DNA from: a virus
Taxonomy: Duplodnaviria > Caudoviricetes
Strand: one strand, 5' to 3'
DNA: 64,000 bases
IMG/VR virus record: IMGVR_UViG_3300032335_001233
Coordinates: 32,001-96,000 of that record
The notes under the pieces were generated by a model. The model was given only the letters and a program-made list of their open reading frames with translations. It did no database searches and was not told the origin of the DNA. A program made the translations under genes and the position numbers. Position 1 is the first letter of the stretch. The number at the start of each line of letters is the position of its first letter. This document shows, in pieces, positions 1-33,317 of the stretch.

Positions 1-50
1 AGAATTTCTTGGTAGTTGTTGATGAGTTTTTGTATGTTTTGATGAATCAT
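1..50 (-). CDS. 5' part of an early gene running off the window edge (MIHQNIQKLINNYQEIL...)
   Basis: ATG at 50 preceded by AAGGAGCCAAAA RBS and a sigma70-type promoter; open to position 1. Confidence 0.7.
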   Translation of the reverse strand, partial: MIHQNIQKLINNYQEI

Positions 51-79
51 TTTTGGCTCCTTTTAGTTACTATACAAGT

Positions 80-143: not shown

Positions 144-161
144 TGTTGTATTTTTACAACA
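144..161. promoter_or_regulatory. Palindromic box TGTTGY-N6-RCAACA
   Basis: TGTTGTATTTTTACAACA; same 18-nt pattern at 32764-32781 and 32856-32873. Confidence 0.6.
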
Positions 162-167
162 AAAGTA

Positions 168-1097
168 TTAGAACTTGTATTCCAAGCCCGCTACCACTTG
201 ACGTACATCTCGAGTGTTGATGTCATGATCAGCGTTGCGATACATCACGCGACCAATCACGTTTTTGCTGAAGCCATAGTCGGCGCCCAGTGCATAGCTG
301 TTCATACCAGCATCAGTACGGCCCACGCTGGCCTTGGCAGTGATGCGTGTGCCAGGAATCAGCTGTTCGGTGCTGAGCAAAGTGCCCTTGACTTCGGTAC
401 GCACAGCGTTGGCCACTGTGACATCATCAGTGTAAGACACACCCACATAGCCGGTACCAACTTTTACTCGACCAATCAAGGCGTTGCTGGTGTTGGTACC
501 TTGTTCAAAACGAGCAGCACCCACAGTGACTGGACCTAGATCAGCGGTGACGCTGCCGGACATAGCTTCAGGCAAGCCAGCACCAGTGGCGGTGTTGGTG
601 AGCTGACGATCAAAAGCCAGCTTGATGCCTTTGATGGGTTCGGCACGTACAAACACTGTGTTGCTGAGACGCTTGTCACGGAAGTGGTGAACGTCTTGGC
701 TGGCTGAGCCAATGGTGCGGCTCCAAAACGGATCAATACTGCGAATCAACCAAAAATGGCTGTGATAGTCACGGCCCACGTCCACGCTGTACTGTTTGGT
801 GGCCAAGCCCACGAGACTGGTACGGTTGCCCAACTTGGTGTCACTGCCGGTGTCAGGTGACACATTGGCGATGGAAGTTTCGATAGTGGCACGAGCCTGC
901 AGGCCGCCACCAAGATTTTCCACAGCACGGAATCCAATGCGGCTGCTTTCGTTGCTCATGGTGGTGCCAGCATCAACACCGCCTGTGGTTTGATCAACCA
1001 CAAACGCATTCATGCGACCATACACTGTGATTTGACTCTGTGCCAAGGCCGCTGAAGAGGCCAAGGTCAAGGCCAAAATCATAGCAAGTTTCTTCAT
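168..1097 (-). CDS. Gram-negative outer-membrane porin (betaproteobacterial Omp32/OmpC-like)
   Basis: Signal peptide MKKLA...ALA^Q; QS-ITVYGR; SRIGFRAVENLGGGL; LGADYGFSK; C-terminal GLEYKF. Confidence 0.9.
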   Translation of the reverse strand: MKKLAMILALTLASSAALAQSQITVYGRMNAFVVDQTTGGVDAGTTMSNESSRIGFRAVENLGGGLQARATIETSIANVSPDTGSDTKLGNRTSLVGLATKQYSVDVGRDYHSHFWLIRSIDPFWSRTIGSASQDVHHFRDKRLSNTVFVRAEPIKGIKLAFDRQLTNTATGAGLPEAMSGSVTADLGPVTVGAARFEQGTNTSNALIGRVKVGTGYVGVSYTDDVTVANAVRTEVKGTLLSTEQLIPGTRITAKASVGRTDAGMNSYALGADYGFSKNVIGRVMYRNADHDINTRDVRQVVAGLEYKF

Positions 1098-17033: not shown

Positions 17034-17800
17034 ATCAATTTTGCTGCCTTGAGTAATGCATCCACAGTGGCTGAACCTGTGGTGGTAACATTGAGTTTTT
17101 GTCCACTTTGGCGTACCACAGCATTGAGCTTGGCCAAAGCTGCACGATTGATACCTGTGGCCTGCATGGCTGCTTGTAACTGGGGGTTGGCTCCGCCGGG
17201 TGTTGAGGTAGAGCCGGAAAAACCAGATTGCTTGCGATTGAAGGTAATCAAGTTTTGAGTTTGAGCAATTGTGTTGGCCAGTTCACCCCAGATGGTTTGA
17301 TTTTCTTTTTCAAGTTCACCAGCACGAATACTGGGACTCACAGCAGTTTTGCTCAAACGAGTGATTAAATCAGTCATGGTCTTCTGCAGGGCCTGGGCTT
17401 CGGGTCTCTTGGCTTGATCCACAGCGTTGGCCAGCTGCTGGTAACTGTTTAATCCAGTGCGATCCAGTGTGCGGTTGACCATGTCGGTGGCAATTTTGGC
17501 AAGTTCGGCTTGATTGAGCTGACTCATGTACGGGGTGCCTGACTGCTTGAGTGCAGCCTGTAGACTCTGTGCCCAAAGTCCAGCTTGTTCTTGTGCCAGT
17601 TGTTTGACCATGGTTTGATTGACTTTGGCTGCGGCCTGGCCAGCAAAACCTGGTGCGGCTTGTGCCCCAGCAGCAACTCCACCAATGTTGGTTCCCATGT
17701 TTTTGTTTATGGCTTGAGCAGCCACAGATCCGATGCCCCGTAGTGCTGTCCCTAGGGCTTCGTCGGTGCGTTGTGGTTGCATGAATTCAAAGATCTTCAT
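17030..17800 (-). CDS. Probable internal virion protein
   Basis: MKIFEF start; Ala/Gln-rich. Confidence 0.55.
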   Translation of the reverse strand: MKIFEFMQPQRTDEALGTALRGIGSVAAQAINKNMGTNIGGVAAGAQAAPGFAGQAAAKVNQTMVKQLAQEQAGLWAQSLQAALKQSGTPYMSQLNQAELAKIATDMVNRTLDRTGLNSYQQLANAVDQAKRPEAQALQKTMTDLITRLSKTAVSPSIRAGELEKENQTIWGELANTIAQTQNLITFNRKQSGFSGSTSTPGGANPQLQAAMQATGINRAALAKLNAVVRQSGQKLNVTTTGSATVDALLKAAKLI

Positions 17801-30600: not shown

Positions 30601-31460
30601 TCTAGGATAACTTTTTTGACCCACTGTCGTTGAGCTATGTCATGCATCATGCGTTCGCGGTTGCCATCAAATTCAATGTCAGCCACAGGATATCTCAAGG
30701 GTCTTGCTTGTGCATTATACACACTCTTGATGCCACGTGCAACAAAAAATTTTGGATGCTGGTCAATGTAATGTTGAATACGGCCATACTGAGTGGCAAG
30801 ATTGCGATCGTGAAATGCCACATAGAAATCCGCCGAGTAGTGATCAAATGGACAAAATGCATCATCTGAGATATACTGGTCATTGTCACGTGCCAAGTCT
30901 TCTACTGTTTTTCCAATCTCACAGTAGTTGAGATACACTGTGCCCCAAGTCACTCGCCAGTCGCCATAGCATTGAGCTATGTCAGCAGGCAGCTGATGCG
31001 TCTTGGGCATGCCAAACCATGTGCACACCAATTTGGCGTGAGAGCCTGCTAGCACAGACTCACATTGGTGCACTGCCAAGTTTAATTCACTCAGTGCACG
31101 GCGCACTATGTCTGGTGCTGACTGCCAAAATTCTGAGTGCTGTTGATCCAACAATCCGTGATGGCATTCAAACACATGGTGAAGGTAATTGAGACAGTCT
31201 TGTGTCCACTCAAACTCACGCTCAATCACCGGCGCATGTGAATTGATGATGGCTATGCAGTGGCGTATCCAGTGCTCAGCAACTTTGCACTGAGTTTGGG
31301 CAGTGCCAAATCCAGAGAATCTGTCAGGGTGGTCCATGGGCCATGCAGTGCGAGCCAGCATGCGCTCAGTCCATAGTTCAGCCAAGGGAGTTTGACGAAT
31401 TCGAAAACGCAACTCTAGATCTCCACTGGGACCTAGATGAATACATAAGTGCTTGGGCAT
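30597..31460 (-). CDS. Hypothetical protein
   Basis: Start set at MPKHL; His/Trp-rich (LNYLHHVFE). Confidence 0.6.
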   Translation of the reverse strand: MPKHLCIHLGPSGDLELRFRIRQTPLAELWTERMLARTAWPMDHPDRFSGFGTAQTQCKVAEHWIRHCIAIINSHAPVIEREFEWTQDCLNYLHHVFECHHGLLDQQHSEFWQSAPDIVRRALSELNLAVHQCESVLAGSHAKLVCTWFGMPKTHQLPADIAQCYGDWRVTWGTVYLNYCEIGKTVEDLARDNDQYISDDAFCPFDHYSADFYVAFHDRNLATQYGRIQHYIDQHPKFFVARGIKSVYNAQARPLRYPVADIEFDGNRERMMHDIAQRQWVKKVILE

Positions 31461-31488
31461 TGTGTATATAGCCACAGTCTACGCGGTC

Positions 31489-31514
31489 AAAAAAACAGGG
31501 ACCGAAGTCCCTGT
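31489..31514 (-). terminator. Intrinsic terminator with cUUCGg tetraloop
   Basis: ACAGGGAC-TTCG-GTCCCTGT followed by a T run. Confidence 0.92.
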
Positions 31515-31520
31515 ATAAAG

Positions 31521-31550
31521 CCTGGGCCGGAGCCAACCGAAATGCCCAGG
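31521..31550 (-). ncRNA. Candidate antisense hairpin element (3'-UTR or sRNA)
   Basis: CCUGGGC-AUUU-CGG-UUGGCU-CCG-GCCCAGG; GUUGGCUCC is the exact complement of the RBS GGAGCCAAC at 32693-32701. Confidence 0.5.
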
Positions 31551-31557
31551 AAAACCA

Positions 31558-31671
31558 CTAACTCAGCATCAACCCCATCACAAAAATCAAAAACGCCCAG
31601 CCTGGGTAACCAAACAACAAAGCCAACATGGCCAATATGGTGCCAAAGAAGGCTTTGTCTGAGTTGGTCAT
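31558..31671 (-). CDS. 37-aa membrane peptide (absent from the ORF track)
   Basis: MTNSDKAFFGTILAMLALLFGYPGWAFLIFVMGLMLS; starts 1 nt after the ATPase stop. Confidence 0.7.
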   Translation of the reverse strand: MTNSDKAFFGTILAMLALLFGYPGWAFLIFVMGLMLS

Positions 31672-31672
31672 G

Positions 31673-32692
31673 TCAAGCACTTTTCATACAGGTAGTCTCT
31701 GCCAGACGCTTCCAGTTCAGCACTGACATCTTGCGCAAGTCTGCAATCTTCAGCGCCATGCGCAGGCTTACCTCACGCAGGCGATCCTTGTTGGTGTGCA
31801 TGAAATCAATGATGTCGTCTTGCACAGCAGGCTCAAACTCATAATCTGCAAACAACACACCATCTTTGGCAATCTGTCGAATACGCAACAGCTTGTCACG
31901 CATGGTGTCCAAGGTCAGGTCCAGGTAGTGACAGCGCGATTGCAGTGCGTCCAAGTGATCACGAAGCTTTTGCGACTTCATGGCATCAAACTTGAGGTTG
32001 GTAATAAAGATCACTGAACCTTTGAACTCAAACTGGTCAGGAATGCCTTCGCGACGCAGAGTTGAGCTTTCTGACAACCAGGAGATCTTGCGCTTCTTGC
32101 CAGAGTCAAGTGCACCCTTGAGCAAGTTCAGCGAAACATCGTCCAGCAAAATGCTGTCACAGTCGTCAAACACCACAACACAGTTGGTGTCTGAGTATTT
32201 GTACAGAGTTTGGTACAGGCCGATAGGTGTAGCCGAGCCCTTGACAACTTCGGCACGAAGTCGCTTGCCAGCAATTTTGTCAAACATTGTGGCTTTTTCA
32301 ATCTCTTGCTCCACGCCAAACGATTTGCCGACGCCGGGAGGGCCGCTCACAATCATGGCACGGATGTCGCCAGTCACAGCAGCCTTGGTCATTTCGGTAA
32401 GAATGTCAAATCGCTCACGGATACGATCCATGGCTTGTTCGTCAGTTTCAGTAACCACAGGCTTCTCAAAAGGTACGGTGTTGTTGGTAGTCATGCCGTT
32501 AGTATACTCAATGTCGCGAATGCTGTCAACCCGGACTCGGATCGTATCGCTAAATTTAGGAAAATGTCCGGCATTGCGAACAGTGACATAGCCGCCGCGG
32601 GCACCAGTTTGAAAGCCGGAAATCAGCTCAAATTCAGTGTTAACAATGTTGTAACCGCGGTAGTTACCTTTTACAATTCGAATAGTACTCAT
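31673..32692 (-). CDS. P-loop AAA-type ATPase, early gene
   Basis: GPPGVGKS, VFDDCD, FITN, ALQSR; start set at MSTIRI after GGAGCCAAC. Confidence 0.85.
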   Translation of the reverse strand: MSTIRIVKGNYRGYNIVNTEFELISGFQTGARGGYVTVRNAGHFPKFSDTIRVRVDSIRDIEYTNGMTTNNTVPFEKPVVTETDEQAMDRIRERFDILTEMTKAAVTGDIRAMIVSGPPGVGKSFGVEQEIEKATMFDKIAGKRLRAEVVKGSATPIGLYQTLYKYSDTNCVVVFDDCDSILLDDVSLNLLKGALDSGKKRKISWLSESSTLRREGIPDQFEFKGSVIFITNLKFDAMKSQKLRDHLDALQSRCHYLDLTLDTMRDKLLRIRQIAKDGVLFADYEFEPAVQDDIIDFMHTNKDRLREVSLRMALKIADLRKMSVLNWKRLAETTCMKSA

Positions 32693-32731
32693 GTTGGCTC
32701 CAGTGAGTTGTTGCAGTTTCAGTATGTCATT

Positions 32732-32873
32732 ATTATAGCAAATTGGGCTTTTTTGGTCAACCGTGTTGCGTATTTGCAACACTGTGTTTTCTGCCCCTTT
32801 TTGCTCATCATGTCATTATTGTAGCAAAATCAGCATTATTGGTCAACCGTATTTTTGTTGCAAAAAAGCAACA
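32732..32873 (-). promoter_or_regulatory. Tandem early promoters, each with an upstream palindromic box
   Basis: TTGACC-17-TATAAT (32732-60) and TTGACC-17-TACAAT (32818-46); TGTTGC-N6-GCAACA at 32764-81 and 32856-73. Confidence 0.85.
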
Positions 32874-32876
32874 TTT

Positions 32877-33317
32877 TTATTGAAATTTCTTAATATTCCC
32901 AATAGCTCGACAGTAAAAAGAGACTCTGTCGCCGTGATAGATGGGCAAAGCACGAGGGTGTCCGTCAAAATCGTCTGGGGCATCGTATAGTTGACCGCTT
33001 TGCCATTCCGGAACGCTGGCGAAACGCCAAAGTCCTGGTTGTTGTGGCTGGTATCCTAAAATTAAAATATCATTGTGATTGCAAGCAATATTGATAAGAT
33101 TGAAATTAAAAATTGGCAAGGTCACAATAATTTTATGACTATGATCTACGGTGGCATCTAGCTGCCAATCTATAGTTGGTGCTAGATCATATATCTGTGT
33201 GATTGGCCGAGTACTATCAGTATCCACTGTGACTGTGACATGAGCATTTGGTCCCGGGCGAACATGCACTGATAGTTCAAAGTCAATTTTGGTATGTTCA
33301 AATAAAGACAATTTCAT
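32877..33317 (-). CDS. Hypothetical protein (AT-rich)
   Basis: 146-aa ORF filling the gap. Confidence 0.5.
   Translation of the reverse strand: MKLSLFEHTKIDFELSVHVRPGPNAHVTVTVDTDSTRPITQIYDLAPTIDWQLDATVDHSHKIIVTLPIFNFNLINIACNHNDILILGYQPQQPGLWRFASVPEWQSGQLYDAPDDFDGHPRALPIYHGDRVSFYCRAIGNIKKFQ

Follow-up and report, generated by a model that had tools for sequence, protein, structure and literature searches.

A hairpin at the 3' end of an early phage operon carries a loop complementary to the ribosome-binding site (RBS) of the operon's own first gene, which raises the question of whether the two ends of this mRNA interact, and to what effect. The first-pass annotation had proposed that a stable 3'-end fragment, or a long-range fold-back, shuts off the translation of early genes that share one RBS word. 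We re-read the window (the whole stretch of 64,000 nt that was analysed; all positions refer to it), and all the sequence statements made in that annotation were found to hold. The features that matter here are as follows.

32818..32846, minus strand: putative upstream tandem promoter by consensus match (-35 TTGACC at 32846-32841, 17-nt spacer, -10 TACAAT at 32823-32818), laid out like the proximal promoter
32763..32782, minus strand: palindromic box GTGTTGC-aaatac-GCAACAC, directly 5' of the -35 element
32732..32760, minus strand: proximal sigma70-type promoter (-35 TTGACC at 32760-32755, 17-nt spacer, extended -10 TGcTATAAT with the -10 at 32737-32732)
32693..32725, minus strand: 5' UTR of about 33 nt, from a transcription start placed by inference near 32725, with the RBS GGAGCCAAC at its 3' end (32701-32693), followed by ATG
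31673..32692, minus strand: AAA ATPase of 339 aa, the first cistron, a homologue of T4 NrdC.10 (phrog_1250, function unknown)
31558..31671, minus strand: hydrophobic ORF of 37 aa, its ATG 1 nt past the ATPase stop
31521..31550, minus strand: anti-RBS hairpin CCUGGGC-AUUU-CGG-UUGGCU-CCG-GCCCAGG, with a 7-bp stem (CCUGGGC/GCCCAGG) and the conserved core GGUUGGCUCCG in its loop
31537-31529, minus strand: exact 9-nt complement of the RBS, GUUGGCUCC, within the hairpin loop
31515..31520, minus strand: U-rich linker (CUUUAUA type) between hairpin and terminator
31488..31514, minus strand: intrinsic terminator CAGGGAC-UUCG-GUCCCUG plus U7, with a cUUCGg loop; its U-tract enters the -35 TTGACC of the next promoter
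48..60, minus strand: RBS GGAGCCAA (60-53) and ATG (50-48) of a 76-aa early gene, arranged as GGAGCCAA-AA-ATG, with a promoter almost the same as that of the ATPase

The proximal promoter was nearly identical to the promoters of the genes at 50 and at -258, and to those of relatives. Boxes resembling the palindromic box were seen at 32856-32873 and upstream of the promoter of the gene at 50; this box might act as an operator or form a weak hairpin. On its own, the ATPase leader folded into a weak structure (-5.2 kcal/mol) that left the RBS open. The start of the 37-aa ORF, only 1 nt beyond the ATPase stop, suggests that the two genes are translationally coupled. A family search with this ORF gave no match, and in relatives its slot was variable, holding from zero to several small genes. 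The ORF also held a second 10-nt complement (to AGCCAACATG, from 31630), which was not conserved. Hairpin and terminator folded as originally drawn (-30.4 kcal/mol, z -2.6). The UUU of the linker was nearly invariant among relatives, and we can only speculate that the linker might be an Hfq or RNase E site. An Rfam search of positions 31300-33000 returned no match at E <= 1.

The complementarity of the 3'-UTR hairpin to the ATPase RBS, the core of the earlier proposal, was confirmed as an exact 9-nt match between 31537-31529 and 32701-32693. The pairing of GUUGGCUCC with the RBS comes to 11 bp once the flanking G.U and C-G pairs are included. Within this genome alone, however, the 9-nt match was not significant, as 9-nt complements are common by chance. 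When the 72 nt before each terminator were compared with the 8 kb upstream, several 9-11-mers were found at every terminator of this genome, and the number of own-RBS matches expected by chance across the genome was of the order of one. A search of the other operons of this genome for complements between RBS and pre-terminator sequence gave chance 9-11-mers only, none of them at an RBS. As the single-genome match is within chance, it becomes significant only through the relatives.

The phage belongs to a roughly 340-kb class. Since a nucleotide search of the GenBank phages gave no match to this genome, relatives were drawn from IMG/VR, and 84 distinct ones with at least 450 nt of downstream sequence were examined. 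We observed a perfect complement of at least 8 nt, no more than 85 nt from a perfect-stem terminator, in 78 of the 84 (at least 9 nt in 74/84). In 2 further relatives the complement sat before an imperfect terminator, bringing the total to about 80, and in these about 80 it was 8-11 nt long and lay just 5' of the operon's intrinsic terminator. Among the lineages without a good match were L030 (7 nt), L043-45 (just 7 bp, a G.U pair included) and L145 (no RBS complement). An own-pair complement of 9-11 nt was present in 41 of the 44 loci of the first scan, while among 18,939 further 45-nt windows from these loci only 13 reached 9 nt and none reached 11. The element was always directly 5' of the terminator; the distance from the ATPase stop ranged from 9 to 2084 nt, and the number of intervening small genes had no effect on this position. 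In a collection-wide pattern scan, the hairpin with its terminator turned up solely at 1.05-3.1 kb downstream of an ATPase start, one per genome and exclusively at the end of the ATPase operon.

It had also been proposed that, if the interaction is real, loop and RBS should covary in related phages, and this test was strongly positive. The ATPase RBS word was the same in most of about 140 relatives. On a maximum-likelihood tree of the ATPase, the variant words were nested separately within the GGAGCCAAC majority, indicating at least 5 independent switches. In 4 of these, with GGAGTTGGC, GGGCTAGTAA or GGAGCTAA (the last arose twice) as the new RBS word, the 3' element had changed to match, so that each word of the four matched classes GGAGCCAAC, GGAGTTGGC, GGGCTAGTAA and GGAGCTAA pairs with its own complement. 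A cross-class matrix gave scores of 8-11 within the own class and of 3-7 across classes; a weak fifth class (L043) scored 5 even against its own element. One RBS change, C to U, retained a G.U pair. The complement covered the SD and the spacer in every class and often the start codon (in many relatives its first base). Judged from sequence comparison, RBS and 3' element change together across more than a hundred related phages from the environment, which indicates that the interaction is under selection.

The structure of the module was conserved as well. We observed compensatory changes at 7 of the 7 pairs of the hairpin stem (97% of cells paired among relatives) and at 6 of the 10 pairs of the terminator stem. 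Together, 98.6% of cells were paired; 0 of 500 shuffles reached the observed values, and slid controls collapsed. The 11-nt loop core GGTTGGCTCCG was invariant, being identical across 46 distinct sequences. The UUGG that had been read as a YUNR U-turn was present and invariant in class 1, where it is confounded with the CCAA complementarity, and by chance alone a YUNR would be expected in loops as long as these (14-17 nt). In classes 2 and 3 the loops carried CUAG, and in class 4 the element lay outside a loop.

A long-range fold-back, one of the two routes suggested earlier, was predicted thermodynamically. The partition function of the whole-operon mRNA gave a mean RBS:anti-RBS pair probability of 0.62 in the window, and full-length mRNAs of nine relatives over the four classes gave 0.85-0.999, figures to be read in the light of MFE and partition predictions being unreliable in vivo at a span of about 1.2 kb, where ribosomes translate. 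Reversing the anti-RBS raised the probability of an unpaired RBS from 0.00-0.19 to 0.10-0.49. For the long helix to form, the nested folding model has to open the hairpin stem, although the stem itself is conserved. The actual complex may be a loop-linear kissing interaction or a pseudoknot, which lie beyond nested folding models.

The explanation that we consider probable is an icaR/hok-like 5'-3' fold-back that shuts the operon to ribosomes once it has been fully transcribed. The early operon would be read in the order sigma70-type promoter, leader of about 30 nt, NrdC.10-like AAA ATPase, variable small genes, anti-RBS hairpin and terminator. During transcription the leader, being unstructured, would let ribosomes load. 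Once the last 60 nt had been transcribed, the 3' loop would pair with the RBS, either on its own molecule or on a sister molecule, and initiation would be blocked. Judging from icaR and from engineered anti-SD sequences, the closed mRNA would probably also be exposed to decay. Most of the downstream small genes start 1 nt past the previous stop or overlap its stop region, and because downstream starts adjoin preceding stops, closing the first RBS would silence the whole operon. Protein output would then track ongoing transcription, in a self-limiting and sharply switchable early unit. We infer that the pairing takes place in vivo, that it is mainly in cis, and that the direction of its effect is repression and not stabilisation or latency.

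The same logical design is found in icaR of Staphylococcus aureus, where a 3'-UTR anti-SD motif base-pairs with the SD region on its own mRNA, so that initiation is blocked and an RNase III substrate is created (PMC3868564). As in icaR, a 3'-UTR motif complementary to the own SD region was present here (9 nt in the window; 8-11 nt in about 80/84 relatives), and selection was evident as conservation and compensatory change (four matched classes, independent on the ATPase tree). In the phage operon the pairing is a thermodynamic prediction (pair probability 0.62-0.999), through which a block of the 30S initiation complex and an RNase III substrate might arise as in icaR. The icaR gene is, however, a monocistronic bacterial regulator gene, whereas this is a phage early polycistronic operon. 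The complement is also longer here (9-11 nt, over SD, spacer and start), lineage-specific, and placed in a hairpin loop that abuts the intrinsic terminator, and it is backed by natural covariation in about 80 sequences, where icaR is backed by experiments. That such a mechanism can work has been demonstrated by experiment: aSD-like 8-mers placed hundreds of nt downstream of an RBS bind to it in vivo, hinder initiation and favour mRNA decay (Gill et al. 2025, PMC12697547). These 8-mers had been introduced into B. subtilis as designed substitutions, and natural genes are depleted of sequences like them; in the phage, in contrast, a natural complement of SD plus spacer is maintained at a fixed place.

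Very few natural cases of direct 3'-UTR:RBS pairing within one bacterial mRNA are known, icaR having been termed a 'singular example', and the ATPase operon would be, as far as we could establish, the first such case in a DNA phage. On the evidence of sequence, the hairpin and RBS look like a real self-closing switch of the mRNA and not a coincidence. The natural genetics is unusually clean: the comparison rests on some 80 sequences and on four word pairs that switched in concert, the stem covaries, and the position next to the terminator is fixed. In this simple and portable way a phage could couple early-operon protein output to ongoing transcription: as translation would end with the finished transcript, expression would stop as soon as the promoter falls silent. 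With the matched classes, nature has supplied compensatory mutants that might double as orthogonal parts in synthetic gene circuits, and phage terminator-proximal hairpins merit screening against the first RBS of their operon. Phages offer precedents for the post-transcriptional temporal control of an upstream or adjacent gene by a site that lies outside its coding region or further downstream. The sib site of lambda, which retroregulates int, is an RNase III site and does not pair with an RBS, unlike what is proposed here. The T4 early transcripts of e, soc and I-TevI carry RBS-sequestering hairpins that depend on alternative transcription starts and are local (<100 nt), whereas the pairing predicted here is long-range.

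Long-distance 5'-3' pairing also closes the full-length hok mRNA, and there too covariation between the ends is the support: coupled nucleotide covariations between the hok mRNA ends, by Gultyaev, Franch and Gerdes in 1997, reportedly backed the fold-back. One could imagine a hok-like latency, in which the fold-back locks the full-length mRNA in an inert, nuclease-resistant state until slow 3' trimming frees the RBS, so that expression is delayed and not curtailed. We consider this improbable. It has the logic of the tac/fbi interaction, which keeps hok mRNA translationally inactive until 3' processing (PMC9841398), and both the small hydrophobic ORFs of the operon and the highly probable predicted helix would suit it. 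In hok, however, the 3' fbi pairs with the 5'-terminal tac while another box sequesters the SD indirectly, and a metastable 5' hairpin bars co-transcriptional translation until 3' trimming activates the mRNA. Here prediction and covariation point to long-distance pairing with the RBS directly and not with the extreme 5' end; the leader (about -5 kcal/mol, RBS open) has no metastable hairpin, so that with an operon of 1.1-3.1 kb ribosomes would load before the 3' end exists, and the strong terminator hairpin 3' of the element would stop exonucleolytic trimming. The element fits the ATPase RBS and no peptide RBS, and a general reading of the operon brought no toxin/antisense pair to light.

The location of the element at the extreme 3' end would also suit an end-to-end clamp that guards the mRNA against 5'-end-dependent or endonucleolytic decay, with translation control secondary or absent, and in B. 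subtilis hbs the 5' and 3' UTRs have been documented to interact in a way that modulates the access of ribonucleases (PMC5737220). This is very unlikely in our view, as the complement was centred in every class on SD and spacer, often reaching the start codon, and not on the 5' terminus, and as RBS occlusion is expected to cut translation and usually destabilises the mRNA (PMC12697547). It is hardly credible that no RNA-RNA pairing is involved at all, the match being due to chance or to a DNA-level inverted repeat (a pair of protein-binding or recombination sites flanking the operon). Chance, within expectation for the 9-mer of a single genome, is ruled out by the class matrix together with the null distribution. 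In duplex DNA one and the same word does occur at both sites, in opposite orientation, but each of the at least 5 independent word switches, among ATPases 80-90% identical, would need a matching change in a DNA-binding protein. Moreover, the SD was always part of the word, the 3' copy always sat in a hairpin with a covarying stem that showed G.U intermediates, and the C to U change in the RBS kept its G.U pair. The opposite strand of the element had no conserved start codon or ORF. An invertible segment was rejected, since none of about 140 loci had the operon arrangement inverted.

The module is built like the Hfq-dependent sRNAs derived from 3' UTRs (the CpxQ, DapZ and SroC type), with a structured terminal seed hairpin, a U-rich linker and a Rho-independent terminator with a U-tail, and its seed is exposed in a loop as in the kissing antisense RNAs CopA and RNAI. 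Hairpin, linker and terminator might outlive the rest of the mRNA as a stable RNA of about 70 nt that represses in trans every early mRNA with a matching RBS, those of the ATPase and of other early genes with a GGAGCCAA RBS, as a timer for an RBS-addressed regulon. We regard such a fragment, which is compatible with cis action, as rather unlikely. The earlier reading of the gene at 50 was correct: it has the RBS GGAGCCAA behind a promoter nearly identical to that of the ATPase. A further copy of its promoter/UTR cassette lies 300 nt beyond it, outside the window, and precedes a 91-aa gene with GGAGCCAACG-ATG. In cofolding, the 3' fragment gained -9.0 and -9.7 kcal/mol (ddG) with the two other GGAGCCAA leaders, against -2.8 kcal/mol with a non-matching early UTR, and both genes are possible trans targets on this model. 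Promoter-plus-GGAGCCAA units numbered 3 in this genome, 5 in a 97%-complete relative (which included the identical cassette and a homologue of the gene at 50) and 2 in another relative. In L028, L029 and L033 an extra terminator and promoter right after the ATPase place the anti-RBS in the next transcription unit, with a 10-nt match kept, which argues for trans action or read-through.

The tagged early regulon of the first-pass annotation stays a hypothesis: in two other large relatives (one 98% complete) the ATPase unit stood alone. Extra GGAGCCAA leaders numbered 2 in G000, 4 in G016 and 1 in G005, with none in G017, G018 and G019 or in the switched classes. In all switched lineages the new word served as RBS at the ATPase only, further matches to it being coding, and homologues of the two small GGAGCCAA genes were not present in the switched-class contigs. 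The element never occurred away from the ATPase operon and no internal promoter was visible; a duplicated promoter/UTR cassette would account for the other GGAGCCAA genes equally well. Whereas sRNAs of the CpxQ type act on other mRNAs, the chief complementary target here is the RBS of the parent mRNA. Under the preferred fold-back, action in trans on further early genes with a GGAGCCAA RBS is possible in the genomes that have them. It is doubtful that a released phage sRNA uses the RBS word as an address to silence in trans every early gene that carries it, with lineages recoding the address by co-evolution of RBS and loop (from GGAGCCAAC to GGAGTTGGC, GGGCTAGTAA and GGAGCTAA); if true, such recoding could insulate co-infecting relatives from one another's shut-off signal.

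Some smaller observations can be added. Among distant homologues of the ATPase, VAP7 had no comparable complement; in PA5oct a hairpin 20 nt past the stop carried an 8-nt complement to the RBS spacer, a single lineage that proves nothing. The reverse complement of some class-1 loops reads as an RBS plus ATG, but an opposite-strand gene start was rejected, as other loop variants and classes had no ATG and the antisense of variable small genes cannot be a conserved ORF. Finally, an apparent 10-fold excess of GGAGCCAAC in a near-complete relative involved neither RBSs nor hairpins and was traced to G-A-N repeats of fibre-like proteins.

The window covers bases 32001-96000 of a virus record that is a single contig of 115,489 bp (48% G+C); CheckV-type completeness figures and the 300-350 kb contigs of its relatives indicate that the contig is a piece of a jumbo phage with a genome of about 340 kb. 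The ATPase operon has the following features (window positions):

Upstream of the leader, minus strand: tandem sigma70-type promoters, TTGACC-N17-TACAAT, then TTGACC-N17-TGcTATAAT
Before the ATPase, minus strand: leader of about 33 nt, with 3' end GGAGCCAAC-ATG
32692-31673, minus strand: AAA ATPase, 339 aa
ATG 1 nt past the ATPase stop, minus strand: hydrophobic ORF of 37 aa
31550-31521, minus strand: anti-RBS hairpin, CCUGGGC-AUUU-CGG-UUGGCU-CCG-GCCCAGG
Between hairpin and terminator, minus strand: U-rich linker
31514-31488, minus strand: cUUCGg terminator and U7

The ATPase is a member of phrog_1250 and homologous to T4 NrdC.10, a protein without known function. We observed that its RBS is exactly complementary to GUUGGCUCC of the hairpin. 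The 3' module folds into two hairpins, and the terminator U-tract runs into the following promoter's -35. GGAGCCAA RBSs are also present at the 76-aa early gene starting at position 50 (ATG at 50-48, minus strand) and at a third gene 300 nt beyond it, both behind a duplicated promoter/UTR cassette. The first-pass annotation had described the promoters, RBS, hairpin, terminator, complementarity and the shared RBS at position 50 correctly throughout. The translation start of the ATPase has another complement within the 37-aa ORF (31621-31630, minus strand), where CATGTTGGCT matches AGCCAACATG perfectly over 10 nt; this one is probably due to chance or lineage-specific, since relatives with the same peptide gene lack it.

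When the 72 nt before each terminator were compared with the 8 kb upstream, several 9-11-mers per terminator turned up within this single genome, and among these pre-terminator matches only the one in the ATPase operon reached an RBS. The complementarity in this genome alone is not beyond chance, and the comparison with relatives is decisive. Two IMG/VR scans with the ATPase yielded about 140 loci with 75-90% protein identity. Most retained the RBS word GGAGCCAAC, and in nearly all of them a hairpin just 5' of the operon terminator bore the complement of the RBS, extended in many loci to 11 nt (TGGTTGGCTCC against GGAGCCAACCA, taking in the start codon's A). The element lay 9 to 2084 nt past the ATPase stop (median 317), irrespective of the number of intervening small genes. 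Among the 84 distinct loci with sufficient downstream sequence, a perfect complement within 85 nt of a perfect-stem terminator reached at least 8 nt in 78 and at least 9 nt in 74, while two further loci had a complement before an imperfect terminator. As a null, 18,939 further 45-nt windows taken from these loci included only 13 that reached 9 nt and none that reached 11 nt. Matches were weak in L043-45 (7 bp including a G.U pair) and L030 (7 nt), and L145 had no complement before its terminator.

We observed that several lineages with an altered RBS word carried a correspondingly altered 3' element.

Altered RBS words, loci of the ATPase relatives and matching 3' elements
GGAGTTGGC; L001/2; GCCAACTCC, presented by a hairpin whose stem differs
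GGGCTAGTAA; L028/29/32-34; TTACTAGCCC
CAGGAGCTAA(C); L042, L070-74; (G)TTAGCTCCTG
GGAGCTAA(A/C); L054, L104-106, L109; (G)TTAGCTCC

In a class-by-class matrix of RBS against 3' element, scores were 8-11 within classes and 3-7 between them; the weak fifth class (L043) scored 5 even against its own element. Each word was found, per whole contig, once as RBS and once inverted as 3' element. In a maximum-likelihood tree of the ATPase, variant words were nested separately inside the GGAGCCAAC majority, GGAGCTAA in two places, indicating at least five independent switches of the RBS word; the 3' element had changed to match in four of these. The covariation between loop and RBS that the first-pass annotation had proposed to look for is therefore present in the relatives, as co-switching of word classes and 3' elements.

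The module itself was examined in an alignment of 46 distinct class-1 (majority-word) modules. The 11-nt core GGTTGGCTCCG was invariant, the rest of the loop varied in sequence and length, and compensatory changes occurred at all seven hairpin stem pairs; the terminator stem also covaries. For hairpin and terminator together, 98.6% of cells were paired, not one of 500 shuffles attained the observed values, and slid controls collapsed. Classes 2 and 3 have the same architecture with other stems and 14-17-nt loops, and in class 4 the anti-RBS lies 5' of a small hairpin, overlapping the final codons of the last gene in L070-74. These differing folds indicate that the conserved feature is complementarity and position at the terminator, and not one particular fold.

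To estimate fold-back, we computed partition functions for complete operon transcripts of 1.1-2.2 kb, which began 33 nt before the ATG and ended at the U-tract; such long-range predictions leave ribosomes out of account. The mean RBS:anti-RBS pair probability was 0.62 for the operon in the window; five class-1 relatives gave 0.95-0.999, and classes 2, 3 and 4 gave 0.85-0.999, so that pairing is thermodynamically feasible. With the anti-RBS reversed in six class-1 transcripts, the probability that the RBS is unpaired rose from 0.00-0.19 to 0.10-0.49. As the nested helix requires melting of the conserved stem, a loop-linear kissing complex is likelier in reality. The leader by itself was essentially unstructured, and nascent transcripts should therefore be translatable.

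We infer that the pairing occurs in vivo, represses translation and acts mainly in cis. The anti-RBS module would be placed so as to be transcribed last and never read by ribosomes. Ribosomes would load onto the open leader while transcription runs; on completion of the transcript, the 3' loop would pair with the first cistron's SD, spacer and start and prevent further initiation. Since the small downstream genes mostly start 1 nt past the previous stop, they would need translation of the gene before them, and the block would silence the entire operon. Going by icaR (PMC3868564) and by anti-SD sequences engineered to act at long range (PMC12697547), mRNA decay would probably follow, and protein output of this early operon would track ongoing transcription. 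The open leader, the length of the operon and the terminator lying 3' of the element speak against a hok-like latency activated by 3' trimming (PMC9841398), and the centring of the complement on the RBS speaks against an hbs-like stabilising clamp (PMC5737220). Neither chance nor an inverted repeat at the DNA level fits well with repeated co-switching, covariation that tolerates G.U, the null statistics and the presence of the SD in every case.

An sRNA derived from the 3' end, acting in trans on an early regulon addressed by its RBS, would be compatible with cis action. In favour of trans action, further GGAGCCAA leaders number two in this genome, four in a 97%-complete relative (G016), whose set includes the identical cassette and a homologue of the position-50 gene, and one in another relative; the element cofolded favourably with the further leaders of this genome, at about -9 to -10 kcal/mol, while a leader that does not match gave -2.8. 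The ATPase of L028, L029 and L033 is followed by an additional terminator and promoter, beyond which the element still matches perfectly. However, a collection-wide scan for loop plus 3' stem found the hairpin-terminator context only 1.05-3.1 kb downstream of the ATPase start, once per genome; two large relatives had no promoter-plus-GGAGCCAA unit beyond the ATPase, and the switched classes no second RBS bearing the new word. Candidate targets for the early regulon with a shared RBS suggested by the first-pass annotation are present in this genome and not in those relatives. The single hairpin, its ATPase-only location and the lone RBS words argue for cis (or self-directed) action.

The insertion in the class-3 loci L028, L029 and L033 lies in the first 70 nt past the ATPase stop. 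The 3' arm (GGTTACT) and loop (CTAGC) of its terminator are complementary to parts of the class-3 RBS, and CTAGTAA in the new -35 region repeats part of this RBS in the sense orientation. In G016, GGAGCCAAC was over-represented (19 copies, about 2.7 expected), as the word encodes a recurrent Gly-Ala-Asn in repetitive fibre-like proteins (TGNITGAN-type motifs); a reading of these copies as RBSs was rejected. Copies of the word in the window and in G016 lie at:

Window 17186-17194 and 65125-65133, minus strand: fibre-like repeats
G016, 91-130 kb (L189-L197): fibre-like repeats

The element shares its working design with icaR (PMC3868564) and, as far as sequence goes, has the features of an icaR-type element; its likeness to the hok tac/fbi fold-back is looser. 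It differs in belonging to a polycistronic early operon of a phage, in its longer and lineage-specific complement, in the display of the anti-RBS in a covarying hairpin adjoining the terminator, and in its diversification into several matched pairs. Rfam held no matching family, and an incomplete literature search, as absence of evidence only, found no paper on such an element in a DNA phage. In Pseudomonas phage PA5oct (L183, MK797984.1, 2466-3680) the RBS region of an ATPase homologue (41% identity) reads GGAGTAGCATTT-ATG. Its stop is followed 20 nt later by a hairpin that carries in the 3' arm ATGCTACT, an 8-nt complement of the RBS spacer, in this single lineage. The L043-45 RBS, GGGAGTAGCA, resembles that of PA5oct.

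Several early promoters have, directly upstream of the -35, a palindromic box that fits (G)TGTTGYAAAnAYRCAACA(C), and relative L101 has one too. The box could serve a regulator of early promoters as an operator, or form a weak hairpin upstream. A promoter/UTR/RBS cassette (TATAATACTTGTATAGTAACTAAAAGGAGCCAA, 33 nt identical from -10 to RBS) has two copies in this genome and is carried also by G016 (ATPase about 82% identical), which suggests that early regulatory cassettes are mobile or homogenised by recombination.

Window 32763-32782 and 32856-32873, minus strand: palindromic boxes
Window 150-170 and genome 31810-31830: palindromic boxes
Genome 31745-31777 and 32053-32085 (window -255 to 85): cassette copies
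G016 160192-160224 and 193085-193118: cassette copies

The terminator U-tract running straight into the -35 TTGAC forms a terminator-promoter cassette that recalls T4 PeSL elements. The gene 3' of it (region 31458-31490, minus strand) encodes 287 aa that match no family and have a conserved N-terminus, MP[QK]H. It lacks a Shine-Dalgarno sequence, both in the window and at the same place in relatives (e.g. L017, L025, L061), and its ATG lies 6 nt past a TATACT -10 in relatives and 2-4 nt past the best -10 in the window; its mRNA is therefore probably leaderless or nearly so. Between ATPase and anti-RBS hairpin, gene content is highly variable (loci L003-L080); many of the small genes encode hydrophobic peptides of 29-70 aa, and most begin 1 nt past the previous stop (TAAnATG) or have an SD that overlaps it. 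This slot is a hot spot of small-gene turnover within a regulatory frame that is otherwise conserved.
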